Shown here: piece after piece, positions 1 through 32,000 of the stretch | Numbering within the stretch: the first letter of the stretch is position 1 | Layout: each line of letters opens with the position of its first letter | Assembly: GCA_965229705.1 (NCBI GenBank) | Contig: OZ245922.1 | Span: 750,001 to 782,000, forward strand | Direction: 5' to 3' | Source: Candidatus Saccharimonadota bacterium | Lineage (GTDB): Bacteria > Patescibacteriota > Gracilibacteria > BD1-5 > UBA6164 | DNA: 32,000 bases | Position numbers and translations under genes: made by a program | Notes under the pieces: model-generated | Seen by the model: only the letters and a program-made list of their open reading frames with translations | Told to the model about the DNA's origin: nothing | Database searches by the model: none

Positions 1-3000
1 TCCATTGAAAAAAGTATTTTGTGATGACTTTTGTACAAGAGGAGCTCATGAAATATGATTTTCTGATGTTTCTGGCGCTGATGAATAATTATCTTTATAA
101 TAGAGCGTCCCTGATGAAAAGTATAAAATATCTTCATCGCCATCATTATCCATATCTTTCATATATGGTTCTTCATCACCATCAAGAAAATCTGTATAGT
201 CAAAGAGCTGATAGTTTTTATCTTCTTCCACCACATATATTCACTCATACTGATAATCTGTCGCAGCATCTGGTCGACAACTGGCTCAGTGTGTTTCTCA
301 TCACTGTGTTCAAGATGAGTCTTGCGCAAAGAGTCTTCGCTCATCAATAAATTTTTCTATGGTTCTGGTTTCTTGCTTGAGCTCTGATTCGAGCTGTGTC
401 GTAAAATGGTCTTCACCATCAGCAAGGGCAATAATACTCTCTAAACTTCGGCTATTATATGGAGCAAGCTGATGTTTGTAAATATCGCGTTTGCTGTTCG
501 AAGATTGTGCTCTTATCTGGATAAAACTTTCTGGATTTTCTCTGTTTCTCAGACGCTCCTGAAGTTTTTGTATTTCTTGTATTTCATGAGTGAGAATATT
601 TTGTAAGAGGTCGAATTTTTCTTGATTATGATTTTGGAGGTCTTGTATCAGAGCATCTTCTATCACTGTTTCTCTGTCTCGAACAGATTTCCAGAGATGC
701 TGAAGTTCTTGAGCGCCAGAGTTTGGTTCTCACACACTTGCAATGAGTCCCTGTGATACATGAGTGATAAACTCATCATTATCCATATATATACTGCTGG
801 CATTTGAAAAGTTTTCTAAGAATGAAAGAATTTTTCGGGTAAGTATCCCAGCTATCATCGCTCATACTTCTTCCTTATAAGAGATATCAAACCCTTTTGT
901 ATTTATATTAATATCGCTTGGAGTAGCATTTCGCAGGTTAATATCGGAAGCTCTAATATCAAACATCTGAGTAATGTTATTGGTCATAGCATCAAGTGGA
1001 GCTGTGACTGATCTCATAATCTCGATAAGAAACTCTGTTTCAAACTCAAAATTTACATAGTTCGTAACTCTGATAGCAGAAATAGTAGAGTAGGAGAAAC
1101 TTGGAAATTGAATATCAAGAAAGTCTGTAGGAAGATATCCATTTCGTTCGGTGAGAAAGGCAATTTGATCTCATGCTCGCCACTCAGGTACAAAAGGAGA
1201 TCCTTTGATGAGACACATAGTCTTGATAATCAACTTCATAATATCTAGTACTATCTCCACTGAACCAAAAATCTGCGGTATTTGAGGTGGTGGTGGCAGG
1301 TGAGGGAGCTCTATTGCTGGAAGTACTGGGAGGTCTGGTAGCTCTGGAAGTGTATATATTGGAAGTAGAGGCAAAGATGGAAGAGTCGCTCAAAGTTCTG
1401 GAAATTCTGGCAAAAAGAGATCTGGAAGAGTTGGCAGAACAATAGGACGCAAACTGATATCAAAGTCTGGGAGATATATCGTCATTCATGCTCTGATATT
1501 ATGAAAATCGAGAATAATATCTGGCCAAGATGGAAACTCTATAATAGGAGGTGTTGGTAATACCACAGATATGAGCTGAAAAATAAAGTCTTGAAGATCT
1601 TGTCTCTCATTTTTACATTCTTGACACTCTGCCTCATAACCAATAAATACATCTATAAATAGTTGCCAAGACTTTAAAATGGCTTTTATCAAAATATAGA
1701 GTTCCACCCACGCCTTAAATCGCTGACCATTTTTCTTGAGCCAGTCTCACATGAGGTTTGAAAGGATTTCGATATTATAGAGAATTTGTCATAGCCATAC
1801 TTCTCGGATATTAATGAGACTCGCAAGACGCTCTGGAAATTTTTTATATTCTTCGAGTATCGCAATATTTTGTTCTAGAGATGATATGAGTGCTCATGAC
1901 TGGAGATAGAGCTTGTTACGTATATCATTTTCTCTTTCACATCTTTCTTGCTCTGCAGGAGTTTCTTTGTCACATGCCTTTCAAAGACTCCATTGCTCTG
2001 CTGCTCTTTGTCGTTCATCTTGCCATGACTGACTCGTTAGTTTCCAGTTCAGTATCGTGCGATTGAGCTCTGTTTCATCAATCCACGGAATATTTACCTG
2101 AATTGTTTCTGACTCTATATCAACGAGAGGAATATTTCCAACAAATTCATAAACTTCTTTAATTCCTGAAAGAGTTTCATTACTACTGTTTTTGAGTCCC
2201 TGACCTGTCTGAGCAAGAACCTGCAGCTCTATCATAGAGCACTGCAAGGCGTCACTTCCACTACAATCTAAAGAGTTTTTTTGTTCTTGGAGCTCTCTCT
2301 TCCGCTGAGCATCTGTCTGTCGCTGATCCTGAACACTTTGTTGTTGTATTTCAAAGACCTCTTGTAGTCCATCTCCAAATCAGGCAAAACTATAGTCAAA
2401 TATTCCTCAAAAATCTGGAAGTATCACATATATTTTTGGCAGATTTGTGAGCTTTGAAGTAATCTCATCAAGTTGCTGATCTACCCAGTTCATCATAAAT
2501 CCTGGGAAACCTCCAACAGCTTTATTTTGTACTTGAACAATATCTGAAAAATCTCGATTTCTTATTTTTTCTGTATCGAGGCTCACCGATATTTCAGAAA
2601 CTCCTTGTGATCATCAAATCTGAATAAAAGGTTTTGTCGGAAGATTGTATGTTCCTGAATTTTGAGAAATAAATTTGAGTTCATCGATATAATCTGCATA
2701 CATTTCTTCGGAAACTTCGTCAGTGCTCAGATATGTCAGGTAGTCATCCATAAAGTCTGATGAGAGCTCTGTAGGAGAGTCAAGACTCTCAGAGGACGAT
2801 CCCTGACAGTTTGCATGAAGAACTCAAAAATCTCAAGATCAGGGAAAGCCAAGTCCTCATGGATTTCCAAATCCCTCTTCACATCAAAACAGAGGTTGCG
2901 CGGTAACAATACAGTTCCCTCCTGGTACAAGAGGATATACTCACATAGGGTTGCTATTTCACGCGACAATCGCAGGTCATCAAAAACATACTGCGAGACC

Positions 3001-6000
3001 AAATCCTCCTGTCAGTGTTGGTGTGGCAAACATACGCACAAAGTTTGTTGATGCCCATGTTCATAGCGATCCTCATGCAGACGGAGGTCCACAAAAAGGT
3101 CATGGGACATATCACTGTGAATGCGCTGGGTATACTGATGGAAGACAACAAGGAGAAAGTCAGCAACTCGCCTGCATTCCAGTAAGAGCAGAAAAAATAG
3201 GAACACCCTCATTAACATGCAAACCATCTCCGATAGGTATTCCAAAAAGAGTTGGATCATTTCCCGGAGCAAGTGGTGCCCAGTTGAGTGGATTTGCAAA
3301 ACAACTTCCTCCACCAAATCCACAACTCAGTCACTGAATTAGCTCATCTATCCCTGCGCTGACTTCGTCTATTCCCTCATTGAGTTTTTCAAAAGATCAG
3401 AGTATTCCTCAAGAGCTACTTGGAGTATTATCCATCGAGTCATCACTATCCATGATACCATCGCCATCGCTATCTTGGAACATATCTACAGAAACTTGCT
3501 GGATATATTCGTTCAGCGCTTCTTGATCATCGCTTGGGATAATCGTTCCGTTTTGATCTGTTGTTAGTACTCCTTCGAGATAGTCAGGGATATCATTTTG
3601 ATTACTATCTTGAAATTGTGAGTATTCTTCTCACATATCATGTCCCTCCTCACAGCTTGTTTGTGACTGAGCAAGTGAATATTCTTTTGATCATTCTGAG
3701 CGGTATACTTCGGCATCGTCTCAACAGTTATACTCAGACTGACGTACCCGAACATCTCCATAGTTATCGTCCCCAACTTCTCCTGACTCAAAAAGTCATG
3801 CCTCTATATGAGCATAGGATACTGCGAGTACTTCAAGGTCTATTTCTATTGTCAGCTCTTCTCACGCGTCAAGAAAAAACTCATCTATAAGAATATCATA
3901 GCTTCATACACCTGTTTTGAGTTTTCGACTCTCACTCTCACGAGAACCATCAGTTCACAAAACATAAAAATCATTCCCTACCACCTGAAAATAGTCTGGG
4001 AGAGTATCAGCGTAAGCTATATTATCTTTTCTTTGTGAAGAAGTGTTTGTAAATGATACTTGATAACGAATCACTTCTCCTGTTTGTAATATCTCAGGAG
4101 TATCGTCGATAAATGTTTTTGTGATTTCCAGACCTACATTTTCTCCATACTGACTCAATAAAAAGGAACTCTCTTGCGTAGAAGTATTTAATCTTGGCTC
4201 GTATATGATATGATCATTGTATGCTTGTGCAAAGTCAGAAAACTCTCCATATCCCTGCTGAACAAACACCTCGTCTCATTGCTGATCCGTCTCCTGAGGC
4301 TTAAAGTTTGTCGGAGTATAAGGAAGTGACGCATAGCTGAGCGAAGCAAGAAGAGTATCATCAATACTTTGAATCACTGGAGTATCAATATTTGCGCTCG
4401 AACTTTGGAGAGCGTCTATATTTTCTTCTACCTCCTTGAGGTAGTCTTCAGCAAAATTACTAGTGATATTTGAGCTTTTTTTCGGTTGAACGAGTCCATC
4501 AAAATACACGGCTCCTCCATGTGAAATCGTCTCTTCTCAGAGACTGAGTTGATGCCCATCTCAAAGAAAAGATTTTTCAAAGCGTGGATTATCGGTATCT
4601 CACGCGCCGTAAAATATATATATCTCCCCAGCGTCATCAAGCGTTACAATATCACTTCTACCATCACGATCCATATCAAAAACTGTTGTTTGGATCACTG
4701 ATCCTTTGAGATCAAAATTTTCTTGAATACTGATTCTTTCTAGTTTTTTCCCATCATTATGAAACATCTCTGGAGTCCCTGTATCGCTCACAAAAAATAT
4801 ATCATCATAACTATCTCCAAAAAAATCTCCCGTTTGTAACATGTTCGATGATCCAGCATCAGCAGCGTAGGCATAATTTCTTTGTGCAAGATATCATCCA
4901 TCACCCGTATTTTCTATCAAAAAGAGAAACCCCTGTCTATCTATCATGAGTATGTCTTCATGATTATCAGCGTTATAATCAAAGGTTCGATAATCTATAA
5001 AATCTTCATCTTTTGCAAGAGTTGTTCACAGTGACCTATCAAAAGATTTTTCTGATCCGTCTTGAAAATACTGCTTTTGTGATGGAAGAGAGATAAGGGG
5101 ATCTCCAATATTTATAAGAGAAAAACTTGGAAATATTTGAGTTGCCTCTCAAAGAGAACTTCCAGAACTCAACTCCAAGATCATCGCATTTGCTTCATCC
5201 CAACCAATAGATTGTTCTTCTATAAATTCTCCTCCGAGATTTGCCTCATTATGAAAAATACTTTGTGTTGATGATGAAAGAGAAAAAGGATCTCGATAAA
5301 AGAAGGATACCCCATCTTGACGGTTTTCTCGCTCAGAATAATCTGACGAATACTGCTGGGATTGGAGATGAATGATAACCGTATCTTTTGATATATTGAG
5401 CTTTGTTTCGAGTACTCGCTGGTCTCGAGTAACATCATAAGAAACATCATCTTGTAGTTGTATTTGCATAACTTTTTCACCTCCATGTTCTACAAATAGT
5501 TGTAGTCACTCTCCTGAAAAACTCTTATCAAGACTCAAGGAAGCGCCATTTTTTCTATACATCTTACCACTTTCATCTATCTCAAAAAGCGTTTTTCATC
5601 ATGCGCTTTGCAAGAAATATTTCTCTGCTTCTTGGACTATCTCATAGTCTGATGCGAGCAGTGAAATATCTATCTCTGTCTCTTCTGACAAGAGATAGTA
5701 TACTCGCGCTATTTTTTCTCTGAGAATCGTATTTTGGATATCCAGTATGAGTCTTCCGCTATCATCTGTAAGCAATTGCACATCTATATCTTGAGTGAGG
5801 TCTTCAGAGCTATTGAGAGAGAGACCTCCATTTGGCAAAAAGCTCAAAGTTTCCTCTCACTTTTCACTCTCTGAGAGAAGCGTAGTAGCCCCAAGAGACA
5901 CATTGTCTCTCTCAAAAATCAATGCTCCTGCAAGATAATCTTCCTGGCTAATATCTCCATAAGGACCTCCAAAAAGTATAGAATACACACTATTATAGGA

Positions 6001-9000
6001 CTGCTCCTCGATACTCTGCTTATCCCAAAAGAAGAAAGTTTCTATCTCTCCTGCCCCCTCAGAGATTCACTGAAAATCAATATCTCCAATTTGGAAATCG
6101 ATATTTTCTAGTCACGCATCTGCTTGAAGTTCAAAAAATCATGTCCCCGAAACAGATCCTCCATACACTCGAAATTGAGAAATTCATTTTTCTACTACCT
6201 GGCTGGTATCAGAAAAAGAAATAATATTTTTTGAGTTTTCGTGTACTTGCGCTGATATAGTTGTGGTATTGTCATTGAAAACGGTATTGCCATACTTGTC
6301 TTTGAGCGTTGCTTCTACGAGCGAGACTTCTTGACTACTTGCCTGCATTTTTGTTTTCGAAGCAGCAATATCTATATATACCGGTTCTTCTGGAAGCAGG
6401 GTAATATTCTTGGTGAATATATCATTTCCTCACTCAAGATGAATTTCTAGAGGGATTTCTTCGCCTGCAGTGAATCCACTGATAAAAGAAATCTCTGCTT
6501 TTCCAGCCCTGACCTCTGTATAAGAATCTGTGATTTGGCCATATATACTTGGCAGAGAAGCGTATACTCGCGAATATACATCAGAATATATATTTCCATT
6601 TTCGTCCTGAAACTCTAAGCTATAAAGATACTCTTCTCCTCATACTTTTGCTGCTGCTCCTTTTTGAGTAAGAACAGGTTTGATATGTTCTACTGTTCGT
6701 ATATAGCGAGTTTTTTCATCTATCAATTTCCCTGAGAGATCATAGGCTCGAAACTGTATCGTGTTTTGTCAGGAGGTATCAGTGCTTTTCAAGCCCATAA
6801 GTTTGTATCATTCAATTATATGATACTCTATCTCTGCTGTATCATTTTCTTCAAAAACGAGACCTCCTCACTGGAGTGATATCTCAAGTTTATAGACATC
6901 ACTATTGGCAATATTTCCAAACCCATCTTCCAAAGTCAGAAAGTGTTGAGAAACATTTCCTCCTACCTCCATAATACTCGTTGAAAGACTTGGTTGAATC
7001 ACGCGCGCTTTCTCTGCTCTTATATCTATATTTTGAGAGGCAACAAATCCATCAGCATCTTCAATAATAAGTTCATATATTCATGACTCTTGCGCGGTAA
7101 ATATTTCTTTTGGCTGAGAAACATCTGTTTGTGATATACTGACTTCTTCAAAGATCTTCTCATCTCCTTTATAAAGACTGATACTGAGAGGATAGTTTAG
7201 TCAATTTTTGGCTCATGTAGGAGATATGTTTTGTACATCTACGAGCAGTTTTTCTGAAGAGTTTGAGAGTTGTGAGAGTTCAGAACCCCATTTCTCAAAC
7301 TCAGTATCTGAGCTGTGAATCACATAAATATTTGGACTTTCTGATACAAGAGCACTATTTCAAAAATCTGCGCCTTCTTCATCTGTGAAAGTGCGACTGG
7401 TAGTAGTAATCCTATCTCCTCGTACCTCTATCTTGAGCTCATTACTCTTGAGATTGAGCAGTGTTTGAGCAGTGCTATCTTTGATATCAAGCTCTGCTAT
7501 AAAGTATATATTTGCATCTATTGCTGGGGTAGAAATATAGTTTTGTGACTCTCATCTCATATTTCGTTGAGCTGCTGTAGAATAGCTAATATATTCTTGA
7601 GCTTGAGCTAGTGCTTGATCTCCGGAAAGATCTCTCTGATCTCTATCAAAAATGATTTTCGTATTGGTACCTGTGAGTTCTTGCGTGATATCTTGGGAGA
7701 TTTCCAATCTTTGTAGAAGATAGCGTGTAGAAGTCTGATTGTCAAAAAAGGCCTTTTCTCCATTTTTTTGATATATATCTGCCTGCAAAATTCCTGTGGT
7801 GTTATAGGAGTACTTTGACTGCCTACTTGAAAGTTTGAGAGAACCCCCCTGAAGTTTTTGCTCATAACAGTCCAAAACACCATTTTTGTTTTCATCTGTA
7901 CTACATTTGTCTATTTCTCGAGCTTGTTCGGGAGTAAAACTTGATCCTCGAAAATCATTTTTTGCGATCTGAATCGTTGGAGGAAGCATCTCCTCAAGCC
8001 AGCATATAATGGCAGAGGGCCACTGAGATATATCCACTCCTTCTGGAGGAGCGCAGGAGAAAACAGCTTCTTCTTGTTTTTGCTGCGGCGCTTCAGGTCT
8101 AGAGGCTCTCAGAGCTGTTTGTAAGGTAAGGTTTTTTTCTAAAGTGTTTGTGTATGGATGCGTTGCTTTTTTTTCTGGATCAAAATTGATATACATATTT
8201 TGTGCATCTCCTGGAGCTGAAAAATACGCTATTTCATAATTTGTTTTTGCTTTTGGAAGATGAAAATCATAGTCGTTGCCCTCAAACTCATTGCTCATAT
8301 AATTCTCAAAGAGGAACTGATACTTTGAAGAAACACTGGTGAGATTATTCCAAAATATCGCAAAAACTACTGTATCATAATAAGAAAGTTCTTTGCTTTG
8401 ACCATTTTGTGAAAAAACTTCTTGGGGTTTGTTTTGGAGAAATTTTGTGAGATCAACATCTGCCTCTGGAAATACGCCACTACTAAGAGACTCATACAGT
8501 GCTGTTTCTCACGGCGTGAGTATGGAAGGGTCTGCCTGACGAATATTTTGATTGATACTTTCTGAAACTTGTGAGAGATGCGCTGTGAGAAGTTCTCGGG
8601 CAGAGTCAATATCAACACCTTGCTGAGATGTATGTTTGAGAGAAAAAAGTTGGGGAAAATCTATTCTTTGATAACCCCTATTTTCTCCTCTTCCATTTGC
8701 TCAGATATAGTCGATATACCGCACACTATCTATCGGAAGAGCCGGCGTAAAACGAGACTGTGACTGAAGAGCAAACTCCTCATCTGTTGGTGATGTATGC
8801 AAAATATACGATGGAATAGTCTTATACTGCTTTACTCATTCTACATTTTCACAACTACATACAATTCTCTCATTATCACCTTGTCATGCTGTTCTACAGG
8901 TTTTATCGTGTTGTTTTGAAATAGTATTGGTATCTCCATTGATATTGAGCGTATAAGTGTTACATTCTCCACTTGTTCCATAAGCCTCTAAAAATCTTTC

Positions 9001-10863
9001 TTCATAATCTGGCGTATAGGTAGAAACATTGTTATCTGTTCGACACGACCATGAACCTGACGCCTCATTTCCAAGAACTGGAAGCTGAAAACCCTCAACA
9101 CAAAAATACTCTTCTCGCTCATTTTCATCTTTTCACACCGTTCGTGACTCTTGATACTGCCTATATGTTTCTACATACACTCCCGCATCATAACAATCGA
9201 GAGGAGAAGGTGTTTTTGAGAGATCACTGACAGACTTTGATCCCAGTATATCAAATAGTGGAACTATCGATGAAGAAAGAGAAGCCCCATTGAGTTCAAA
9301 ATCTCCATAGTTTTCACTCTCTCAAACTTTCAGATTGAGAGGAGTATTTCCTCACCAATATCATTTTGTAACTGGCAAAGCTCAACTATCTCCAGAGACA
9401 AATGTATCTCTACATAGTTCGAGGTCAGCTTCGGTATTCTGGACATTATACGCTCTGTTTGCCTCTACGAGATGATTTCCAGAACCTCGATATATACTAC
9501 AGTCAGCTGCTGACTCTAGTTCGTGAGCGATTTTTCCATAATAAAAAGTATGAGATCGTGAAATACATTTGGCTTGTCAGAGTTGCTGCTGTGTCTTTTC
9601 AAGGCGTATAGGAATGTTTCGTGAAAGTCCATTTTTGACTATTTGTGTAATCTCCTCTTCCAGTGCGTCACTGGCATCTTTGAGTATTTGCGTATGTATC
9701 TCATCCAACTGAGAAATCAAAAAAGCAGGGCTATCCATGTTTACTCTCCTTCCTCCCTGGTTGTATCTCCCAGCATTGTATACATTTTTTCGCATCTCTC
9801 AGAGAGAAGAAGCATTAAATGTTTCGAGAAATCTGTTACTGGTATTATTGGTAATATAACGAGACACCACATCTGATGAAGTGTTGGTATCTGGACCCGT
9901 ACTAAAGAGTTCTGGAGAAAGATCTATACCCGCTTTTTCTACCAGTCCCGATATATCCTCATCTTGAGTTCATAGAACATGATTTTTGACTTCTTCTGCA
10001 AGTTCTTGTGAGTATCTGTTATAGATCATATCATCTTTATGCTCACTATACATCTCGTATCCTGCGTATTTTTGATATTGAAGTGCCTCGTTTTCACGAA
10101 ATTGATCATAATAAAATACATAAGGTTCATAGTCTTTCCCCATTTCTCAGACTGTGCCATTGATGATATTTTTTTCTTCCGAAAAAAGTCCTTCTCCCGT
10201 ATAAAAATCATGATTTTTATCAAAATAGTTTTGAATTGCTTCTATATTTCCTTGTCTTGTTCCGGTATTTGGAGAAATAAATCCATGCCATATCTCTGCC
10301 TCAAAAGTATTTGTTGCTTGATCCGCTCTTTGGTATTTTTGATTTTCATGATCAAAGATAAACTGTTTTTCTACAAAATCTACATAGGGTAAAACACTCT
10401 TTGCCGAAGCTCCGTTATCAAATACGAGAGGAAGGGGAATATCCCCTATAAACACTGTTCCTACCAAACGCGACTCAAAGGAAACATCTTCGTGCACTTT
10501 GTATCACTGAAAATATAGCGCCTCACTGAGAGATGCAATATCATATACACTTGCTGTCTTTGGTGTTGGAAATATAGCAACCTTAGTATTTTCTCTATAA
10601 GACTGTATATCTCGAGAATAACGAACAATCTCTGTTTTGAGATCAGGATATATATCTTCCTCTACTATAAGGGCCACGAGGTCATGATATGGTTCATCCT
10701 CAGCGTAGAGTGAGCTGAAAAATACTTCAAAGGGAACTCGGAAAATCAAGCTCAAAAATATGCTCACTATCAATATGCATGAAAGTGTTTTTTGTAGCAG
10801 GGTTTTGGGAAAGAATTTCTTGAGCATCCTCGTGAAAATAAAGGTTTTTGAGAGAATACGCAT
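1..10863 (-). CDS. giant secreted/cell-surface multidomain protein; the C-terminus runs off the window start (at least 3,621 codons visible)
   Basis: One minus-strand frame joins track ORFs 10504..10863, 10147..10497, 9577..9795, 7552..8298, 5599..5847, 5149..5469, 4600..4842, 4276..4509, 3955..4269, 1981..2247, 1486..1707, 1171..1374, 310..666 and 46..234. I walked the frame triplet by triplet. Every interruption is TGA (plus-strand tca). The only in-frame TAA/TAG is tta at 10966-10968, upstream of the ATG at 10861-10863. The N-terminus has a hydrophobic signal/TM segment (TLSCILIVSIFLSLIF...SSLYA). Ig-like repeats appear around 5850-7550 (ATLKDKYGNTV, LTLEDGFGNIA, LEFQDENGNIY). FG-GAP/VCBS-like repeats appear around 4600-4990 (FDMDRDGRSDIVTLDDAGEIYIFYG). 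Other segments: a DUF11-like stretch (EVIRYQVSFTNTS), an acidic Ca-binding-like DSDGDGIMDSDDS at 3427-3477, and LP-rich repeats at 1280-1483. Confidence 0.85.
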
Positions 10864-11146: not shown

Positions 11147-12469
11147 ATGCACATAATATCTTTTATAGAAATCTTTTGGTTCTTTTTTCTCTGGATCAAT
11201 ATATATATTGTTTGGAGAGATATAGCGTTTCAAAAGATAGAAAACGCATCTGTATGAATACTTTTTGCGCTATGATGTATATGATTTTTATTTGGAATAC
11301 TGAGTTTTTCATGGTGAGTATTGCTCTGGTTCCACCTTATCTTCTTGTGTATATTTCTCCTCTTTTACTTTGGTATTTGGTGAGCTGGAGATGCGAAATA
11401 TATACTTGTACTGAGTATATTTTTACCTGTAGGAAGTGTTTTTACACTTTTTTGAAATATTGCGATTGTTACCCTCCTGTATCTCATAGTTCATAGTATA
11501 CATCTGTACATCATCAAAAGTCTGTATGATCTCTCTCATGGGAAAAATCTCTTCATGAAAATATATGCCGACCTCAGATCAAAATTTGATGTATTTCTTG
11601 GAGGAGACGAAGCTCAAAAATATCAATGGAAAAACCTGATAGAAAAAATATTCCCCTTCCTTATAGGGTTTTTGATATTTTTTATCATCGTGCGGCTTGT
11701 ACGAATATATGCTCTATGAGAATGGCTCTGAAATGAAGAGGGGTGAAACAAGATCTGACTCCTACTTCAAATCGCAACAGAGTATACAAGTATGATTGTC
11801 TTGGGAATTATTATATGAATATATATCATCTATAAAGCATGCAAGAAAATCTTTTCCTCTATTTTTATATATGTATATACGCGTTTTTGAGTCTCTCAAG
11901 AAACAGCAAGATATATATGACTTATTGTTTCAAGTATCGGACTTATAGGTTTTATATCATACGAATATATCAGTGGCTCGGAAGTGATATGATGATACCT
12001 TGTCATGATATTCAGCGTATATATATTTCTCTATCTTACTGTGCGTCTTCTCATATATCTCCATTATGTTACTTTTCAACTTGCAGAAGTGGTATATAAG
12101 CGTATTTGAGAACTACAAGTTTGAGAGAGGGTAGACAAAGATTTTTTGATTCAAATTTTTGGAACACAAAAAGCCCTCTGATACGGAGAGAAAAAATGAA
12201 AATATGGTCCTGAACCTCGAAATTTTTTTACAAGTATTGAAAATCCTCTCTCTCAAGAAGCCGTTAAAGAGTTACAAAACATTTATCGACTCACAAATAA
12301 TTATCATATAAGACAAAAAACACCAGGATTTCAAAAAATAGAAGCTGTAAAAACCATCAAAAGTTTTGCTTTTTCTCCTTATATATTTTTCGGACTTATG
12401 CTGACCTTGATATATGATGATGTCCTCAAGAGTATTGTGGAGTTTTTTATCCACCTTATCACATCCTAA
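11147..12469 (+). CDS. A24-family (prepilin/preflagellin) aspartic peptidase-like polytopic membrane protein with a long C-terminal extension (440 aa)
   Basis: The plus frame is open from 10988 to the TAA at 12467-12469 once TGA is sense; the first ATG is at 11147. Two A24-type Asp motifs are present: VWRDIAFQKIEN (Asp codon 11219-11221) and GIW-G(TGA)-AGDAKYILVLSIF (GxGDxK, Asp codon 11390-11392). Many hydrophobic segments occur throughout. Confidence 0.7.
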
Positions 12470-19450: not shown

Positions 19451-19554
19451 ATGGAAGATATGACAAAAAAATCTTCAATCCACTCTGGCTCTATCGAGCC
19501 ACCTCTCCTTTGAAAAAGGAGAGAAAAAAGGACTTTCTCAGAGCTTCCTTATAA
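19451..19554 (-). repeat. copy 2 of the ~105-bp element (inverted; one arm degenerate)
   Basis: The reverse complement reads TTATAAGGAAGCTCTGAGAAAGTCCTTTTTTCTCTCCTTTTTCAAAGGAGAGGTGGCTCGATAGAGCCAGAGTGGATTGAAGATTTTTTTGTCAT.... Its right end overlaps the last codons and the TAA of rSAM-3 (19549-19551). Confidence 0.75.
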
Positions 19555-20661: not shown

Positions 20662-21087
20662 ATGATGCAAGTAAATAGTCATTTAGGTGTTAACGAAAGT
20701 GCAAAAACACAAAGATCTCCTGTATATTGAATTGCTCATGCTGTAATAATAGCTGCTACTGCAATTCTTGCTACTTGATGTTCATCAGCTCCAGCAAACA
20801 CTGGTCAAGAAACTGTACTATCTGTAATAGAGGAATGACAACAATTTAAAAATTGGCCAACATTAGATAGATTCGGTCAATGTGAGTTCGACGATGAGCC
20901 TGAATATTATCAAAGACTGTGAGGAATGAGTACTAGATCAGAGCTAGAAGCTTATTATGAAGAAAATTGATGGGCTTTAAAACCTTGAGGTTACTGACAG
21001 CTTGTATTGAAGGTTTTGAAAAATGATCGTTTAACAGAAGCGGATAAGAGATCTCTCAGCTGTATCACTCTTGCGGGTTCAAATTAA
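20662..21087 (+). CDS. small lipoprotein, 141 aa, unknown function
   Basis: From ATGATG at 20662 to the TAA at 21085-21087, with 9 in-frame TGA codons. The lipobox is AILAT-G(TGA 20776-20778)-C-SSAP. The rest is acidic/aromatic (QCEFDDEPEYYQRLGG...EAYYEENGW). Confidence 0.7.
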
Positions 21088-21284: not shown

Positions 21285-21812
21285 TTATCTACCTCTTGTG
21301 TGTTGGTCTTTTCAACTTGATGAACTCCCATGACTCCCGTGTGAACCATGACTTCCGTGTGAACCATGTGATCAGTGAGATCAGTGACTCCCATGACTTC
21401 CATGGCTTCCATGTGATCAGTGACTCCCATGACTTCCATGTGATCAGTGACTACAGTGTCCTACAGGTGTCGCTGTTGCCGTAGGCTGAGCATTAAAATG
21501 TCCATTCACGATACCGCTTGAATGTGCTATAGAAAGGTTACATCACAGATTATAATTTCGATTTGATCCAGGATAACACACAGGAGTTGCACCTCATCAT
21601 CTATTTCCACTAAAGTGACCATACACTTCGGGTTCATTTATAGGATTAGCATATGAGTTACACTTTGGAAGCGCCGCATCTGCAAGCTCAATTCATCAAA
21701 GTAGCAGTCAGGCAGCTCCTATACCAAAAGCATCTTTTTTTGTGACTTTTCCACTCTCATCGGTGAGAAACTGTGAAAGTTTGAGTTTTATTTTTGGGAT
21801 TTTATTTTTCAT
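21285..21812 (-). CDS. hxsA: His-Xaa-Ser repeat protein (HxsA-like), 175 aa, ending in HCS followed by 14 HGS
   Basis: The minus frame from the ATG at 21810-21812 to the TAA at 21285-21287 contains 11 in-frame TGA codons. Translation: MKNKIPKIKLKLSQFLTDESGKVTKKDAFGIGAAGLLLGGIELADAALPKCNSYANPINEPEVYGHFSGNRGGGATPVCYPGSNRNYNLGCNLSIAHSSGIVNGHFNAQPTATATPVGHCS-(HGS)x14-SSSGKDQHTRGR. It lies 9 nt downstream of the HxsB-like gene on the same strand. Confidence 0.85.
21324..21458 (-). repeat. 15 x 9-nt coding tandem repeat (His-Xaa-Ser units)
   Basis: There are 15 consecutive CAY-(TGT/TGA/GGN)-(TCN/AGY) units. Gly is encoded by TGA in 4 units and by GGA/GGG/GGT in 10. Synonymous codons are mixed for all three positions. 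Confidence 0.9.
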
Positions 21813-21821: not shown

Positions 21822-23216
21822 TTAAAAAGCATAAGTAATCCATCGAGAAAAAAGTTTTTTTGCAAAATCATCATTTTCCAGTTTATCAAAGATATAGTCT
21901 AAAATTCATAACTGAAGCTTCATTTTTTGGTCTTCCATCATCGGAGAAAAGAGTGACTGATTTGTCTGAAAATTATGAATAATATCTACTCCAAGATATG
22001 GTTTATAAACATGGTCATTGTATCCAGGAAGTCCATCGAGACAACTCGATTGTACGGCTATCTTTGTAATAGGACTCGACATCATCGCTTTATAACTTTC
22101 TGCTCAATTTTCTTTGAGTTCTGTCATCAAAAAGTCTTCTATTCCCATTCGCCCTAACATGCGAGACTCATCACTTGCATAAATTTTCCCATCATAATTG
22201 TATGCCACTCACCCCACAGCAATACCACTCGGACTTCGTATATCCATAAATGCAGGATCAATATCATTAAATATCTTCATCAGGTACACAGAAGTGATTT
22301 GCTCTCTAAAGTCTTTTCACTGCTTGTTCAACTCTAAAATATAATCCATAGATTTTGTATAAAACTCCAGCCATTCATCTGCGGTATATGCCAATTTTTT
22401 CATATCTGCTGCGGCAAAACCATAAGGATTGAGCCATCTCAGAAAAATACCATCAAGTCATATATCCAAATAACTGTTAATAAGTCTTTGATATTCTGGA
22501 AGATTCTTCTTGGTTACCGTCATGAGAGCCCCTATCTTTGATCTCCCTTCTTTTTGTTTTCTGGCATTGATATGTTTGATCCAATAAGTAACTTTTTCAA
22601 AGCTATTTCCCTGAAAACCCGAACGATTCATATTATGATGTTGTTCATCGCCATCAAGGCTGGTACAGATAGAAATATTTCTCTCTAGGAGCCAATCCAG
22701 CTTTTCGTGAGTCATCAGTGTGAGATTACTCACGAGAGCAAAGCTCAGATTTTTTTGGAGATATTGAGCTCGAATGCTGGCATATTCAACAACAAATTGC
22801 AAAACTTCCCAATTTACCAGTGGTTCTCCTCACTGAAACTCTATGGTAATATTTTGTGCATTGGTATGAAGTATAGTATCAACGCATCTTTGCGCCGTCT
22901 CTTGCGTCATATCCAAGCCCTTTGCCGACATAGGTGCTACCGCTGCATGACAATACTGACAATGATGATTGCAACGAAGCGTCAGCACCATCATATGAAG
23001 AGCAGGTCATTGTCCTACAAAATGACTTTTTGCACCATAGGCTCTTGTCATCCATCTCTCATAATCTGGAGTTTTGATAAAGCCTTTTGCAACAAGGTCT
23101 TCGTAAGCATCAAGTTTTTCGAGAGTATTTCATGTAAGAAATGTTTCAAAATCTTGAGCAGATAAAAAATGAAATCGTCATGCGTCATTTGTGAGGAGAT
23201 ATGATCATGACATCAT
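21822..23216 (-). CDS. hxsB: radical SAM maturase, HxsB-like, 464 aa (rSAM-4)
   Basis: I walked the frame from ATGATG at 23211-23216 to the TAA at 21822-21824; it includes track ORF 22458..22802. Motifs: LTLRCNHHCQYCHA (Cys codons 22950-22973) and IEFQ-G(TGA 22830-22832)-GEPLV. It has the long N-terminal pre-domain and the size typical of the larger of the paired Hxs radical SAM proteins, and it sits directly upstream of the HGS-repeat gene. Confidence 0.8.
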
Positions 23217-23271
23217 TTTTTTAAAGCGAAAAAATCATATTTTTTCGGTATTTATACCTAAAATGCTCTCT

Positions 23272-23481
23272 TTATTCATACTGTATGCTTATAACATAAT
23301 TCATAAATTCTTGGAAAATATACGCCTCTTCATAGTCTTTTCCCTTTGAGGTAATAGTAATAAGAAATGTTCCTTCAGAAGAAGTAACAACAATATCAGC
23401 AATATCTTTATAGGCCTCTTTAGCACTTTCAAGAGCGTATTTTCAGTATATTTCTGAAGAAATTGAAAAAGAAGGTGTCAT
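23272..23481 (-). CDS. small protein, 69 aa, resembling the N-terminal half of the adjacent HxsD-like protein
   Basis: From the ATG at 23479-23481 to the TAA at 23272-23274: MTPSFSISSEIYGKYALESAKEAYKDIADIVVTSSEGTFLITITSKGKDYEEAYIFQEFMNYVISIQYE. The pattern is the same as residues 1-80 of the upstream gene (I..S.EIY...I..A.Y, a beta-rich middle, then EEIF..Y.N). Confidence 0.5.
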
Positions 23482-24227: not shown

Positions 24228-24305
24228 ACTATTATATCCCTTTATATATTTATCCCTAAAGTGTACCCAGTTTACTCCCATCTCTATATTTTTTGAATTT
24301 TTTAT

Positions 24306-24371: not shown

Positions 24372-24734
24372 ATGTTTAGATTATTTTGGGTCTTAGCCAG
24401 TTCTTCTCTTTTTTTTTCTGCTTGCGACATTTCGCAAGCAACAAAAAAAGAAAGTAATGTATTCAGCGCTATCGCGCCGAGATACAAAGATTTTTCTGGA
24501 GTCGACCACAAAAATATTCTTTGTGCCAATCCCGAAACCTATCGTACGGTAGGTCGAATGAAAACGGTTAAGCAAGTTCAGCGTTATTACGCTGAACTCG
24601 GATTCACAGGAGATATCCCTCGTGACAGCCCTTATGGGGCTGCAATTACTGCACTGCAAGGCACCAGCTTCACAATGCAAAAGGAAAAAGAGGAAGCATA
24701 TTGCTTCCATCAAGAGGACACAGGAGAGCTATAA
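24372..24734 (+). CDS. small lipoprotein, 120 aa, unknown function
   Basis: The track ORF is intact with no TGA. MFRLFWVLASSSLFFSAC is a signal peptide with a lipobox Cys. An SD-like TAGGAG lies 6 nt upstream of the ATG, and a strong terminator follows. Confidence 0.75.
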   Translation: MFRLFWVLASSSLFFSACDISQATKKESNVFSAIAPRYKDFSGVDHKNILCANPETYRTVGRMKTVKQVQRYYAELGFTGDIPRDSPYGAAITALQGTSFTMQKEKEEAYCFHQEDTGEL

Positions 24735-24921: not shown

Positions 24922-25209
24922 ATGACTCAATATGAACTTATGATGATTCTCGACCCTGCTGTAGGAGAAAAAGAAAGAGCAGCAAGCGTTCAGAATGTCG
25001 AAACACTCCTCAAGAACGCAAAAGCAAAAGGAGTGAAAAAAGATGAGTGGGGTGAAAAAAAGCTCGCTTATAAAATAAAAGGCTCGCAAACAGGATACTA
25101 TATCTTGTGGTCTCTTGAGCTTGAAGGTACAGCTATCAAGAAAATGAATAATGAACTAAACCTTGATGGAAATATTTGGAGATACATGTTTGTTAATTTA
25201 GATGACTAA
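24922..25209 (+). CDS. rpsF: 30S ribosomal protein S6
   Basis: Intact ORF: MTQYELMMILDP...EWGEKKLAYKIKG...GYYILW. These are typical S6 motifs, and the gene lies in the rpsF-ssb-rpsR arrangement. Confidence 0.95.
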   Translation: MTQYELMMILDPAVGEKERAASVQNVETLLKNAKAKGVKKDEWGEKKLAYKIKGSQTGYYILWSLELEGTAIKKMNNELNLDGNIWRYMFVNLDD

Positions 25210-25218
25210 TACTATACT

Positions 25219-25629
25219 ATGAGAACGATAAATAAAGTAATCTTGATCGGAAATATTACCCGAGATCCTCTTATCAAAACAACCGAATGAGGAAAAAAAA
25301 TGGCAATGTTTACTACCGCAACAAATAGATATTATAAAACCTCTGATGGAGAAAATAAGTCTGAAGCAGAGTTTCATAACTGTGTCGCGTGGGGAACTCT
25401 TGCTGAAAGAGCTGAGCAGTTTCTCACAAAAGGAAAACTCGTTTATATAGAATGAAGACTCAAAACACGAGTCATAGAAAAAGAGGATGGAGAAAAAAAC
25501 TACAAAACCGAAGTCGTGGTAGCAAATATCATCTTCCTCAATAAAAAAGGCGACTTTGATGACAGTACATCAGAATCTCCCGAAACCCTCGATGCTCTTG
25601 AAAGTATTGATGACGATGATATGTTTTAA
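25219..25629 (+). CDS. ssb: single-stranded DNA-binding protein, 136 aa
   Basis: MRTINKVILIGNITRDPLIKTTE-G-GKKMAMFTTATNR...[32 protein letters not shown]...DDDDMF. The two in-frame TGA codons (25288-25290, 25453-25455) fall at conserved Gly positions. The acidic C-terminal tip is typical of SSB. Confidence 0.95.
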
Positions 25630-25650
25630 ACTCAACAAATACTCATATCC

Positions 25651-25713
25651 ACTTTCTACTTTTAACTTTCGAACTTTTCCCTTTCAACTTTCAACTTTCT
25701 ACTTTTAACTTTC
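25651..25713 (+). repeat. pyrimidine-rich direct repeats in the ssb-rpsR spacer
   Basis: ACTTTCTACTTTTAACTTTC occurs at 25651-25670 and again at 25694-25713, with CTTTCAACTTTCAACTTTC between them. Confidence 0.7.
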
Positions 25714-25740
25714 CCCTTTTACCTTTATAACACCCTTACT

Positions 25741-25962
25741 ATGAACCAAGAAAAAACTTGTCCACTTGACGGACAAAACATTGACTATAAAAATGTTGAA
25801 CTTCTCAAAAAATACCTTACAAAATTTGGAAAAATCATCCCAAGATACTACACTTGAGTATCTCTGAAAAACCAAAAGAAACTGGCAAAAGCTATCAAAA
25901 GAGCAAGAATCATGGCTCTTATCCCTTTTGTAAAAAGATTTGATCCAAACTTTGGAGCATAA
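25741..25962 (+). CDS. rpsR: 30S ribosomal protein S18, 73 aa
   Basis: [39 protein letters not shown](TGA 25855-25857)-VSLKNQKKLAKAIKRARIMALIPF. These are canonical S18 motifs. Confidence 0.95.
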
Positions 25963-25981
25963 ATATACTACTAATAAGCAT

Positions 25982-26434
25982 ATGAAACCATACTCTGTAC
26001 ACCTCGAAGACATACTCACAAAATTTCTTGTAGGGTTCTCTAGTGGTTTTTTTTCAGCATTTTTGATTGGAGGTATTCTCTTCTTTGCTGATGCTTTTCC
26101 CAGGATTGTAGAAAAGTTTTGAGCAAAAAATGAGTTTGTTGCCTTTTCTATTCATATGCTGGCAGGAATTATCATGGCAACTATTTTTTCGTTCCTATTT
26201 TATAGGAAAATTACATCATATACCATGAGCGTTGTATATGCTTCTATTTTTTCTCTTGTTTTCTGGTTATTTGCAACCGTTATTGTGAAACCATTAAAGT
26301 TTGGAGGAACTTTTCAAGAAGCTCTTTTAACCGTGTTTCAAAACCTCAATATCTTTTTCTGACATATTCTCTTCGGGATACTTTTAGGATTTGCTTTCTA
26401 TTATCTCAAAGGAATTATTAGGCTGAAAAAGTAA
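25982..26434 (+). CDS. hypothetical small membrane protein, 150 aa (about 4 TM helices)
   Basis: From the ATG at 25982 to the TAA at 26432-26434, joining track ORFs 25940..26122 and 26156..26362 through TGA codons at 26120-26122 and 26360-26362. Hydrophobic helices are visible (FLVGFSSGFFSAFLIGGILFF, MLAGIIMATIFSFLFY, and others). Confidence 0.65.
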
Positions 26435-26526: not shown

Positions 26527-26593
26527 TATTCAATTCACTTTCCAATTTTTTATGAGAATTTGGATTCATTTCTGTGTACTATTATTAGGTATT

Positions 26594-27190: not shown

Positions 27191-27256
27191 TTGATAGTAT
27201 TACTTAAAATATTTATTGGTATTTTATATGAAAGTCAATATTTGCAAAAATTTTAT

Positions 27257-27284
27257 TTGATTTTGCACTTTTTCGCCCTATAAT
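27257..27284 (+). promoter_or_regulatory. putative typA promoter
   Basis: TTGATT at 27257-27262, a 16-nt spacer, then a perfect TATAAT at 27279-27284, about 40 nt upstream of the ATG at 27325. It has the same TTTTATTTGA upstream context as the other promoters. Confidence 0.55.
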
Positions 27285-27324
27285 CCTCGCATTTTAGAGA
27301 AAAACTACTTTATTATATATACTT

Positions 27325-29127
27325 ATGTCATTTCGAAATATCGCGATTATCGCACACGTAGACCATGGAAAAACTACTCTTGTCGACGAACTCTTAAAAG
27401 CTGCTGATGGCTTTGATACGCGTATTGGTATCGAGGAGCGCGCTATGGATCACAATGCTCAAGAACAAGAAAGAGGAATTACTATTTACTCAAAAAACAC
27501 CTCTATCAGGTACAAAGGTGATAAAATCAATATTGTGGATACTCCAGGTCATGCCGATTTTGGAAGTGAGGTAGAACGAGTACTCAGAACCGTAGATAGT
27601 GTATGTCTTGTAGTTGACGCCTATGAAGGTCCAATGCCCCAAACAAAGTTTGTCCTCAAAAAATCTCTCGAACTCGGTCTCAAACCTATTGTGGTCATCA
27701 ATAAAATGGATAAACCCAGTGCCAGATCTTCATGGGTGGTAGACCAACTTTTTGACCTCTTTGTCCAACTTGGAGCACAAGACGAACAACTTGAAAATCT
27801 TTACTCTCCTGTATATGCGGTTGCTCGTGATGGTCTTGCATGGACCGATGAAAATGATAACAGAGAAAATATTACTCCTCTTTTAGATTATATTATCTCC
27901 ACTGTTCCCGAAGCTCCAAATGATTCACATGCTCCATTTAAAATGCAGATCGCAAATCTGGGGTATGACAATTTTCTTGGTCGTCTCGGTGTTGGTCGTG
28001 TGTACGAAGGTGTTGTAAAACAAGGCCAAGATGTATGGGTTGCTGATAATGATGGAAAGAAAAGGAAAGGGAAAATCACCGAAATACTCACAAACGAAGG
28101 ACTCGAGAAAGTAAAAGTTCCAGAAGCTGAAGCTGGAGATATCGTAACTATTGCCGGAATTGCTGATATATTTGTTGGAGAAACTGTATCAACAAGTGAA
28201 GATGCGGAGGCTCTCCCTGCTATCACTATTGATGCGCCCACTCTCAAGATGGATTTTCTCGTCAATAACTCTCCTTTTGCTGGAAGAGAAGGAAAATTTG
28301 TAACCAGTAGACAAATACGAGAAAGGCTTGAAAAGGAGCTGGAAACCAATGTTGGACTCAAGATTGATTTTGACTCAGGAGAAAACTATGAAGTTGCCGG
28401 TCGAGGAGAACTCCATCTCTCCGTCCTCATAGAAACGATGCGAAGAGAATGATTTGAACTACAGGTATGAGCTCCTGTTGTTATCATGCACGAAGAGGAA
28501 GGAATAAAGATGGAACCTATAGAAAATGTTGGTATATCTGTCTCATCATGATCTGAATGAGCTGTTATAGCAGAGCTTGGTAAACGAAAGGGGATGATGA
28601 GTCATATGGAAGAAGAAAATGGTGTTGTATCACTAGAATTCAAAGTGCCAACTCGAGGACTCCTTGGTTTTAAGTCAGAGTTTACTACTATGACTAAGGG
28701 TGAGGGACTTCTCTCAAGTAGCTTTGAATGTTTTGAAGAATATAAAGGACCCATCGAAAAAAGGAATGTATGATCTATGATCTCTATGGAAAATGGTACA
28801 GCTATGGCGTACTCACTCTTTAATCTTCAAGAAAGAGGAACAATATTTATCACTCCTCAAACAGAGCTATATGAGGGAATGATTATTGGTGAATCGAGTA
28901 AAGATCAAGATCTCACGGTCAATGCCACAAAAAATAAAAAATTGACGAATGTTCGTGCAAGTGGAACTGATGAAGCTCTCAAGCTTACTCCTCCAAAGAT
29001 TATGAGTCTCGAAGAAGCGATTGATTACATCTCTTCTGATGAATATGTGGAAATAACTCCTGAAAATATTCGTCTGCGAAAAAAATGGCTCAAAGAACAT
29101 GAGAGAAAAAAACATAAGAATGGATAA
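27325..29127 (+). CDS. typA: translational GTPase TypA/BipA, 600 aa
   Basis: Track ORFs 27325..28452 and 28777..29127 are in the same frame and are joined by 5 in-frame TGA codons. Motifs: [18 protein letters not shown], ...[16 protein letters not shown](28450-28452)-FEL..., and C-terminal [14 protein letters not shown]. The sequence is colinear with BipA over its full length. Confidence 0.95.
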
Positions 29128-29183: not shown

Positions 29184-29723
29184 TTATACTCTATACACAT
29201 AAAAATACTTATTATCCCTCACATGAATCTTTTCATAATAATCTACTCCCGGTACTTCAAAAGAGCTGGAATACAATAAAGTTCCCGAACGACATTCTCG
29301 ACAAACCTTATTATGTACTCGTTTCATATGAAATGGAAGCAGATAGCAATATACAACATCTGCCTCTGAAATATCGGTAGAAAAAAAATTTGCTCTTCGA
29401 ATATCATAAGAAACATCTGACTCTTTTTGTCTTCTTTTTGCAAGAAAATAGGGATGAAAAGAGTTTTCTATTCAGATACATGTAACTGCTGGAAAGTGCT
29501 TTTTTACTGCTTCTACCACTTTTCCATCACCACATCCGATATCATAAAAAATACTTCCCGAACGCAGTTTGAGAGACTCACAGAGCTTTGTGATTTTGTA
29601 ATCTGGAGTAGGGACATAGGGGACACCGTATCAAAATATTACTGGAAGTAATACTTGAATAGTAAACAAGAATAGGAGTACAAGAACAATAAAACAGGCA
29701 AGAAAAATAGCAATAAAAAGCAT
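29184..29723 (-). CDS. class I SAM-dependent methyltransferase with an N-terminal TM helix, 179 aa
   Basis: From the ATG at 29721-29723 to the TAA at 29184-29186, with 2 in-frame TGA codons. MLFIAIFLACFIVLVLLFLF is followed by ...IFYDIGCGDGKVV (motif I) ...DVVYCYLLP. Confidence 0.8.
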
Positions 29724-30535
29724 TAGAGATCAAACTGTGATGTAATATTATTCATAAATGTTGTATCATCTTGCTCTCGTCTTTGTTGCTCATACATCTC
29801 AGCATCAGCTCATACAATATATCGCAATGTATCAGTTCCATCTGTTGCTGCCTCATATATTTTTTCTGCTACAAGTGATGCAGGTGAAGCAACTTCAAGG
29901 ATTCATCACATAGCATTCATCAATTTTCCAAAAATATTTTGATACTCTGTGAGTGACTCATCGTTTTGCATATCAAAAGAACGTGTAGCAAAGTCTGTGA
30001 TGATTGCCCCTGGTTCAATAATCTTTACTTTTCCTCCAAACTCTGCAAGTTCATATGAGAGTGATTCTGATATTCCTTCTACAGCAAATTTTGTTCCATG
30101 ATAGAGGGATACTAAAGGAAAGGTCATCTTTCCTCCTATCGAAGAAACATTCATAAGTATTCCTGACTTATTATCTCGAAAGTGTGGAAGAAAAGTCTTT
30201 GTTACTTCTAAAAGTCCTATGACATTTACCTCAAACTGACGACGAATAGCATCCATAGAAAAAGCCTCAACAGGACCAGCAGTTCCATATCCTGCGTTAT
30301 TGAGGAGCACATCTACGATTCCAAACCTTTCTATTGCTGACTGATATGCTGACTGAATACTTGCGGAGTCTTGTACATCAAGTCGCGTTACAAGAACATT
30401 ATCAAGATCTGTAAGCTCTGTTTCTTTCTCTGGACTTCTCATGCTGGCAACAACATTCCACCCTTTTTCGTGAAATAATTTTGCTGTTGCTTTTCCGATA
30501 CCACTACTTGATCCCGTAATAAAAATAGTTTTCAT
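29723..30535 (-). CDS. short-chain dehydrogenase/reductase (classical SDR), 270 aa
   Basis: Track ORF 29906..30535 extends through TGA TGA at 29903-29908 to the TAA at 29723-29725. Motifs: TGSSSGIGKA, NNAG, S...YHGTK. The stop overlaps the methyltransferase start (TAATG). Confidence 0.9.
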
Positions 30536-30615: not shown

Positions 30616-32000
30616 TTACAAATGATTTTGTTCCCATTCTTGAAGAGCCTGTGTACTTTCAAGAACAAATTTTGTGTCTACTTCTCTCCCTCATAAGAGA
30701 ATAAAAATATGTATTTCTCACTTTTCTTGTACTGAGAGAAAATCTTTGAGATCATGAATTTGATCAAGAGAGGTGCCTTGTGGTATTTCTACAATATATT
30801 TTCATGATTCTTGAGAAATCATTTTTTCTACTTTTTCATATTTATTTTCTTCTATTTTGGCTTCGAGTTTTTTTTCAAAAACCTCTTCAGAGTCTCCCTC
30901 TCATTTGGCAACTTCACTTTCACGCTCTTTCTCCTCAAAAGAGGAGGACGATAAAAACGCTAAGTCTCTTTTTGAGGTGTCAAAGAGATTCATATCTCGA
31001 GCCTGAGCTCTTAGCTGTGTAAGCGTTGCTGTTATGATTTTTCGGGCACGAATATTTTTTCTCCTATACTCAAAATTTATATCCAAACTTCACTCTACAA
31101 TCACTATTTTTCATACTGTTACTGTATCTTTATACTCGTCATAGTCTCTGTCAAAAATCGTAACTTCAAAATCATATGCATATGACTCACAATAAAGAAA
31201 CAACATATTTTTTCCTGTTTTTGTCACAACTTTTCTTATGTCCATAACGATTCCTACTGTTTGAAGTTGCTGTTTTTTCAAATCTTGCTCAAATTTTTCC
31301 TCATCTTTTTGATAAATCTTTTGAAGCTCTTCCAACCTCATTTGTAGATACTGAGTAGATCGAGATCTTCGAGAAATATATGTTCTTAATCCGTCAAGCG
31401 GGTGTCCAGATACCATATAACCAAGTACTTCTCTTTCTCAAAAAAGTCGCTCTTCATAGGTCATGTGCTGTCATTTTCTGAGAGAAAAACTCTCGTCAAA
31501 AACCTCTCATCAAAGACCTGAGTCAAATAGTCCCATTTGCATTGAGTCTTTCTTCTTTTCTTCATTTTTACTCATTCGAATCATATCATCGATATTTGCA
31601 AAGAGATCTGCTCTTTCGCCAAACTGATCCATTGCTCAGGCAAGTATCATCGCCTCAAGAGACTTTTTGAGCATCACTTCACGTCCTCATCGCTTCACAA
31701 AGTCATCAATATGCTCAAAAGGTTTTTCTTTTCGAGCTGCAAGTATCGCGTCAATAGGTCCATCTCAGAGTCATTTTATAGCTTTAAGTCCGAAACGGAT
31801 ATGACTATCATCAATATAGGTAAAATGTTTGAGAGACTCATTTACATCTGGTCTGAGTACCTCAATATTATGAGACTTCGCTTCTGCAACTTCAAGAATA
31901 ATACGGTCCATATTTTCCTCATCTGAGATCATCATAGAAGTGAGAAACTCTGTTCTATAATGCGCCTTAAGATACGCTGTCTGGTAGGCAATAAGAGCAT
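30616..32000 (-). CDS. dnaE: DNA polymerase III alpha subunit, C-terminal part (the 5' end lies beyond the window)
   Basis: The minus frame is open from the window end to the TAA at 30616-30618 with TGA as sense. It reads ALIAYQTAYLKAHYRTEFLTSMMISDEENMDRI...IRFGLKAIKG-LGDG...GYMVSGHPLDGLR, followed by an OB-fold segment (QTVGIVMDIRKVVTKTGKNMLF). Confidence 0.9.

Follow-up and report, generated by a model that had tools for sequence, protein, structure and literature searches.

Evidence that UGA is read as glycine under translation table 25 in a 32-kb Gracilibacteria-type chromosome segment

What does UGA mean in a stretch of bacterial DNA that the standard bacterial code leaves nearly empty? 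The question is raised by positions 750,001 to 782,000 of contig OZ245922.1 (assembly GCA_965229705.1), 32,000 nucleotides that were analysed as a whole and are called the window here. A sequence-only reading of the window had proposed that UGA is glycine throughout. The comparisons described below put at roughly 0.96 the probability that the window comes from a Gracilibacteria chromosome (BD1-5-type, Candidate Phyla Radiation, CPR) using NCBI translation table 25. The recoding itself is already known, as code 25 in a Gracilibacteria genome present in databases. In the window, UGA is an ordinary glycine codon, the second most used, and makes up about a third (~33%) of glycine codons.

UGA is a sense codon in the window, far beyond chance. 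Open reading frames (ORFs) of at least 100 amino acids cover 29% of the window under table 11, where the longest has 375 residues, and 97% once TGA is sense; making TAG or TAA sense yields 46% and 49%. The density comparison that the sequence-only reading had proposed favours sense over stop, and it cannot separate table 4 from table 25. The counts that follow refer to 21 curated genes, 20 of them complete; the family assignments among them were confirmed after each TGA had been replaced by X. In-frame TGA is found in 19, amounting to 225 codons (228 with the longer start of the lipoprotein gene) or 23.5 per 1000 codons; the two genes that lack it encode ribosomal protein S6 and, when started at ATG 24372, a lipoprotein. 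TAA and TAG are missing from the reading frames of all 21 genes, although the off frames of these genes contain them at about 16 per 1000 codons. As had been claimed for the long genes, every complete gene closes with one of the two, TAA in 18 and TAG in 2, and UAA and UAG are the sole stops. Under table 11, 19 of the 21 genes are split or shortened, which bears out the warning that most would be missed or truncated. The individual TGA codons that had been singled out are all in frame: those of the GTPase BipA (28450-28452), SSB (25453-25455 and 25288-25290), ribosomal protein S18 (25855-25857), two radical SAM proteins (22830-22832 and 16752-16754), a lipoprotein (20776-20778) and a protein with an A24-like peptidase domain (11381-11383).

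That UGA is still a stop, with the window made of pseudogenes or frameshifted genes and occasional readthrough or selenocysteine insertion, would fit the fragmented table 11 map, as expected of decayed DNA, but has a negligible chance in view of (i) frames that stay open for up to 3621 codons without TAA or TAG, the longest being a minus-strand ORF that runs past 3,621 codons once TGA is sense; (ii) 75 compared TGA codons kept in place in L001, a sister contig (ENA ERZ25074195, 26.8 kb, 96.6% identical to the window) from a strain in which 3.4% of bases are different; (iii) glycine at TGA columns in orthologues; (iv) intact domains with good scores 3′ of the TGA codons (BipA_C, 162 bits); (v) C-termini that agree with family ends, namely the acidic tail of SSB and HxsB matched to the last model position (466 of 466); and (vi) the number of sites, about 225, which is far too many for selenocysteine, with no Rfam RNA element found.

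If UGA is sense, the choice lies between glycine and tryptophan, its meaning under table 4 in Mycoplasmatales and several insect endosymbionts. Tables 4 and 25 are indistinguishable by coding density (gTranslate preprint 10.64898/2026.05.24.727570), and tryptophan translations of this genome's SSB, S18 and BipA stand in a public protein collection. Every test able to separate glycine from tryptophan or stop nevertheless favours glycine, and five tests agree on glycine, not tryptophan, at the TGA codons of the window; each test based on alignments rules table 4 out, and tryptophan is left a very slight chance.

Solved structures of orthologues from standard-code organisms allowed 15 TGA columns to be read, and tryptophan stands in none of them. 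BipA/TypA (27325..29127, plus strand, 600 amino acids) has TGA at 28450, 28468, 28549, 28558 and 28771, which correspond to residues 376, 382, 409, 412 and 483; under table 11 the protein ends at 375 of its 600 residues, just ahead of residue 376 in the context ETMRRE-x-FEL. E. coli BipA has glycine opposite residues 376, 412 and 483. SSB (25219..25629, plus strand; tail DDDDMF before TAA) carries TGA at residue 24, in a variable loop, and at residue 79, a conserved glycine in the context VYIE-x-RL that is glycine in the SSBs of the PDB. S18 (rpsR, 25741..25962, plus strand) has TGA at 25855-25857, residue 39, in the context RYYT-x-VS, and all four displayed PDB chains have glycine there. Glycine also lies opposite residues 76, 78, 121, 187 and 303 in E. 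coli DnaE, the counterpart of a C-terminal fragment of 460 amino acids that runs off the right edge of the window (DNA polymerase III alpha, 30616..31998, minus strand, 14 TGA). The alignments of BipA, SSB and S18 on which the sequence-only reading had staked its claim therefore give glycine at BipA 376, 412 and 483, SSB 79 and S18 39, and tryptophan nowhere. SSB residue 24 (25288) is a different matter: it had been listed as an invariant glycine and is a variable loop column with Asn, Ser or Gly in orthologues. A PDB search with the short-chain dehydrogenase of the window, run at too strict an E-value cutoff, returned no match and added no columns.

Related genomes give the same answer at larger scale. 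BipA was aligned across 20 genomes (GTDB representatives), the other sequences being read from unambiguous codons. At least one TGA is present in 43 columns, where the remaining sequences show glycine in 584 of 708 cases (background 7.4%) and tryptophan in none. Glycine or TGA is present at BipA residues 376, 382, 409, 412 and 483 in 22/22, 20/22, 12/22, 22/22 and 22/22 relatives, with TGG in none; the corresponding figures are 12/12 for SSB residue 79 and, as GGN or TGA, 11/11 for S18 residue 39. When all window genes were tallied against 22 related loci, window TGA codons (n=403) faced TGA 166 times, GGN 134 times and TGG never. In the reverse direction the TGA codons of relatives (n=521) faced window TGA 166 times, GGN 237 times and again TGG never, so that TGG stands opposite TGA in 0 of about 760 aligned codon pairs. 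Seven changes at TGA codons separate the window from its sister contig: four exchange GGA and TGA, and TGG↔TGA is not among the seven. Since a TGG↔TGA transition would be silent if UGA encoded tryptophan, its absence counts against table 4.

Protein families and composition point the same way. All 13 Pfam domain hits score higher with glycine than with tryptophan, by some 93 bits in total; examples are SSB (119.9 versus 112.0 bits) and HHH_6 in the DnaE fragment (88.3 versus 73.4). Evidence that needs no homologues comes from an HxsA-like protein (21285..21812, minus strand), in whose 14 His-Xaa-Ser units Xaa is encoded by ten GGN and four TGA codons. Overall composition is 7.05% Gly and 0.77% Trp under table 25, against 4.7% Gly and an implausible 3.1% Trp under table 4. 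Published proteomics has proved UGA to be glycine in a BD1-5 bacterium, with 40 glycine peptides to one tryptophan peptide at the highest stringency (PMC4032931). With Codetta, UGA→Gly was assigned to 13 species of Gracilibacteria out of 15, a result linked to tRNA-Gly(UCA) and the absence of release factor 2 (PMC8629427).

Several observations count against the table 25 reading. At five of the 15 structure-read TGA columns (BipA 382 and 409, SSB 24, DnaE 104 and 296), E. coli or another reference has Ser, Gln, Asn, Thr/Leu or Asp in place of glycine. The variable positions 382 and 409 are Ser and Gln in E. coli BipA, and loop residue 24 of the PDB SSBs is Ser or Asn. TGA sites in the DnaE fragment and SSB are less conserved than GGN sites, which fits loop glycines and is no proof of uniform decoding. 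On the basis of published work on the clade (PMC8629427; preprint 10.64898/2026.05.24.727570), UGA would be decoded by a dedicated tRNA-Gly with anticodon UCA, and release factor 2, otherwise the reader of UGA, would have been lost. A tRNA scan of the 32-kb window found no tRNA, and a scan of 20 related loci found no tRNA(UCA), an outcome expected by chance and evidence neither way. No release-factor domain was found among the 21 window genes; the window is ~3% of the genome, so a lack within 32 kb proves nothing.

A further possibility is that UGA is mainly glycine yet ambiguous or inefficiently read (some tryptophan, context-dependent termination), such that accuracy-critical genes would avoid it. 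The TGA share of glycine codons ranges from 0-14% (S6, BipA, short-chain dehydrogenase) to 50-61% (DnaE fragment, A24-like protein, PPDK-like protein, a 435-aa protein), with heterogeneity at p=3e-6; it is 0% in S6 and the 24372 lipoprotein, 10% in BipA and 59-61% in the PPDK_N-like protein and the 435-aa protein of no known family. The lower conservation of TGA sites in DnaE and SSB could be taken in the same sense, as could the potential UGA/UGG ambiguity via U34 wobble raised in PMC8629427 and the single tryptophan peptide of PMC4032931. Against this, genes richer in GC have a smaller share of TGA (rho=-0.64, p=0.0016), no site-level difference in conservation between TGA and GGN is seen in BipA, S18 or the giant ORF at the left edge of the window, and invariant glycines of catalytic motifs (GGE, GxGD, BipA 376) are encoded by TGA. 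We regard ambiguous decoding as quite improbable. Because TGA share is negatively correlated with gene GC, a mutational AT bias explains much of the spread and is the simpler reading of it. It has also been considered that the spread, with low values in S6, BipA and the short-chain dehydrogenase and high ones in accessory genes, and the lower conservation of TGA sites in DnaE and SSB could stem from selection that disfavours a codon read less accurately or efficiently; this seems unlikely; the suspected cause of such costly decoding would be UGA/UGG ambiguity through U34 wobble, and the proteins of TGA-rich accessory genes would then be statistical mixtures.

Glycine at UGA, with UAA and UAG as the only stops, places the window within table 25, the Candidate Division SR1 and Gracilibacteria code (Campbell 2013 and Rinke 2013, as cited in PMC8629427). 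Both features are shared, as is the Gracilibacteria affiliation, and no departure was found. Table 25 genomes are low in GC and small, and here the window is 36% GC and its source contig 1.0 Mb (1,006,762 bp); the use of TGA, at ~33% of glycine codons, is very heavy. Table 4 (Mycoplasma/Spiroplasma) has in common with the window that UGA is sense and gives an identical density signature, and differs in that the TGA columns here are glycine and never tryptophan. The Absconditabacteria, a sister lineage, share UGA = Gly and are reported to have CGA and CGG as tryptophan in addition, a reading reported for CGG in some Gracilibacteria too (Shulgina & Eddy 2021, PMC8629427). Both codons were tallied for this reason. 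The 98 CGA codons of the window have arginine partners in 75% of cases, like AGA (74%) and CGT (76%), and CGA is still arginine, in which respect the window differs from the extended Absconditabacteria code. CGG, with six codons that lie opposite arginine codons in the close relatives L001, L007 and L022, is too rare to judge. In a distant Gracilibacteria metagenome-assembled genome (MAG; L014, JBBILU010000009.1), two CGG codons stand opposite window tryptophan (TGG) at residues 955 and 3023 of the giant protein (35% identity), which is consistent with the published suggestion of CGG = Trp in some Gracilibacteria. A tally of all codons revealed no other real deviation. It flagged ATG, TGG, CAA, CAT, GAA and GAT, which is an artefact of excluding identical codons in one- and two-codon families and no sign of reassignment.

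The affiliation had been left between Gracilibacteria and Absconditabacteria, and BipA matches narrow it to the BD1-5/Gracilibacteria side. The nearest BipA sequences (61-85% identity) come from MAGs titled Candidatus Gracilibacteria, with a few Peribacteria/Patescibacteria, in what is a similarity ranking and not a phylogeny; the next-best matches are Bacteroidota at 53%. An episymbiont lifestyle, as suggested in the sequence-only reading, would follow from the clade. The sister contig lacks window positions 10921-15687 and most of 17529-24133, except for a homologue of a small lipoprotein gene, and has an IS1595-family transposase in place of these segments. The radical SAM and HXS-like genes therefore sit in a strain-variable island.

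This island holds a set of genes resembling HXS, which was recently shown to defend against phages by blocking the entry of their DNA; 99.7% of HXS systems are in Pseudomonadota, and the gene order is nearly always D-B-C-A (PMC13128918). One member is the radical SAM/SPASM maturase HxsB (21822..23279, minus strand, 11 TGA, including 22830-22832 in EFQ-[TGA]-G-E-P), an equivalog that matches TIGR03978 at 466.6 bits (cutoff 370) over model positions 3-466 of 466 and whose Pfam scores are higher with glycine. It lies directly upstream of the HxsA-like gene introduced above, which has 11 TGA codons and scores 53.8 bits against NCBIfam HxsA4, just below the cutoff of 55. Three HxsC- or HxsC4-like paralogues are scattered nearby, none beside HxsB, and are far below cutoff (100-132 bits versus 268-500). 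Radical SAM protein 1 (12466..13431, minus strand, 3 TGA) resembles HxsC (NCBIfam 100.2 bits, cutoff 267.9) and scores 89.9 bits for Radical_SAM with glycine against 85.8 with tryptophan. Protein 2 (15681..16961, minus strand, 7 TGA) resembles HxsC4 (131.7 bits, cutoff 500; Radical_SAM 65.0 versus 59.3); the TGA at 16752-16754 does lie in its GGE motif, and the context, from which the sequence-only reading had dropped one G, is VIIS-[TGA]-GEAS with the motif as [TGA]-G-E. Protein 3 (19549..20520, minus strand, 9 TGA), also HxsC4-like and below cutoff, has a TGA-TGA pair in GFL-xx-D and scores 63.3 versus 51.2 bits for Radical_SAM. No HxsD match was found among the window ORFs with NCBIfam. Published systems share the HxsB maturase with the window; here no HxsD was found and the order is not D-B-C-A. 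Published HxsA has about five repeats rich in basic residues together with a peptidoglycan-binding domain (PMC13128918). There Xaa is basic, whereas the protein here has 14 units with Xaa = Gly (H-G-S), and Pfam finds no peptidoglycan-binding domain in it. By the published definition, the cluster is divergent and incomplete. Since HXS is 99.7% in Pseudomonadota, a version in a CPR bacterium with code 25 would be an outlier.

The remaining genes illustrate how much of the window depends on UGA being sense. The giant ORF (1..10863, minus strand, more than 3621 amino acids, 82 TGA) runs off the left edge, has an N-terminal hydrophobic segment and is open only if TGA is sense. Its sole Pfam match is one FG-GAP_3 repeat; it is 96.6% identical to its counterpart on the sister contig, with two GGA↔TGA changes, and its L014 homologue is 35% identical. 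A membrane protein with an N-terminal A24 (prepilin peptidase-like) domain (11147..12469, plus strand, 19 TGA) has an in-frame TGA at 11381-11383 as the first G of G-A-G-D (context W-x-AGD). The GxGD assignment made for this codon holds as to frame; the A24 match itself is weak and passes the Pfam cutoff of 26.5 only if TGA is glycine (30.3 bits, against 20.2 with tryptophan and 20.3 with X). Next comes a protein with a PPDK_N-like ATP-grasp segment (13409..14959, plus strand; 22 TGA versus 15 GGN; PF01326 47.6 bits with glycine, 35.0 with tryptophan). A membrane protein of 240 amino acids (14934..15656, minus strand, 5 TGA) and the 435-aa protein (16951..18258, minus strand; 11 TGA versus 7 GGN, the highest share at 61%) have no family match. 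Three lipoproteins are encoded. One contains TPR repeats, according to Pfam TPR families and NCBIfam TPR hits, and has an LLSSC lipobox (18265..19425, minus strand, 9 TGA). A small one (20662..21087, plus strand, 7 TGA) has the TGA at 20776-20778 in position -1 of its lipobox, L-A-T-[TGA]-C; this codon is kept on the sister contig, where a 3-nt deletion gives L-A-[TGA]-C, a canonical LAGC if TGA is glycine. The other small one (24372..24734, plus strand, FFSAC lipobox, 0 TGA) is intact under any table, and the upstream part of its longer ORF is filled by repeats.

On the right-hand side of the window, S6 (rpsF, 24922..25209, plus strand, 0 TGA; PF01250, E=5e-25) is identical in sequence to the protein on the sister contig. 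Minus-strand ORFs at 25198..25638 and 25705..26175 are wrong or unsupported, ssb and rpsR lying there on the plus strand. The ssb-rpsR spacer holds a tandem repeat (25648-25731) with a period of 14-15 nt and about 5-6 copies of a CTTTCAACTTTC-like unit. A membrane protein of 150 amino acids (25982..26434, plus strand, 2 TGA) has no family match. Some 850 nt (26440-27300) lack a convincing gene: the ORFs 26506-27111 (plus strand) and 26594-27034 (minus strand) have no Pfam or Rfam match, and in the annotation of the sister contig the former stands as a gene of 197 aa. Neither Pfam nor NCBIfam matched any of seven unassigned ORFs, among them both candidates in 26.4-27.3 kb. Downstream of BipA, whose sister-contig counterpart is called at the full 600 amino acids, lie a SAM-dependent methyltransferase (29184..29723, minus strand, 2 TGA; Pfam Methyltransf_25 and Methyltransf_11), with one GGA↔TGA change relative to the sister contig, and the short-chain dehydrogenase (29723..30535, minus strand, 3 TGA; PF00106, E=6e-45).

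Two kinds of repeated intergenic sequence were seen. An element of ~75-90 nt occurs five times, at 21100-21195, 24128-24221 and 26441-26536 on the plus strand and at 11030-11122 and 19458-19550 on the minus strand. It comprises a conserved 10-bp hairpin (CTCTCCTTTT/AAAGGAGAG), then a second short hairpin and a T-run. The element shows no covariation, and Rfam gave it only sub-threshold noise at a permissive threshold; at the gathering threshold Rfam had no match anywhere in the window, and an exact-pattern search for the element in the related loci found none. Of the four indel boundaries between the window and the sister contig, two (10921 and 24133) have a copy close by, a placement which suggests that the element acts in recombination or as a terminator-like unit. 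Separately, a 53-nt segment is present in two copies (20547-20599 and 24259-24311) that are 94% identical and end in TTGACA. Each of the two small lipoprotein genes has a copy upstream, and the segment looks like a promoter region that was duplicated.

For annotation, the commoner public error is table 4 and not, as the sequence-only reading had warned, table 11. The public protein collection (NCBI, ENA) holds exact tryptophan translations of this SSB, S18 and BipA; the glycine versions of the three are absent from it, as is a 375-aa table 11 BipA. Searches seeded with the correct sequences consequently find no exact match. Pipelines that rely on density assign table 4, and about 225 glycines become tryptophans. 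With that error a genuine domain, Peptidase_A24, no longer reaches its Pfam cutoff (20 versus 30 bits); GGE and GxGD motifs and a lipobox would be corrupted, as would a defence-type effector, whose His-Gly-Ser repeats would read H-W-S. Table 11 makes a giant protein of surface type, longer than 3,600 amino acids, disappear. The gene content of this Gracilibacteria-type segment is readable only with table 25, and the value of the finding lies in the warning that it gives to annotation and in the key that it provides to that gene content.

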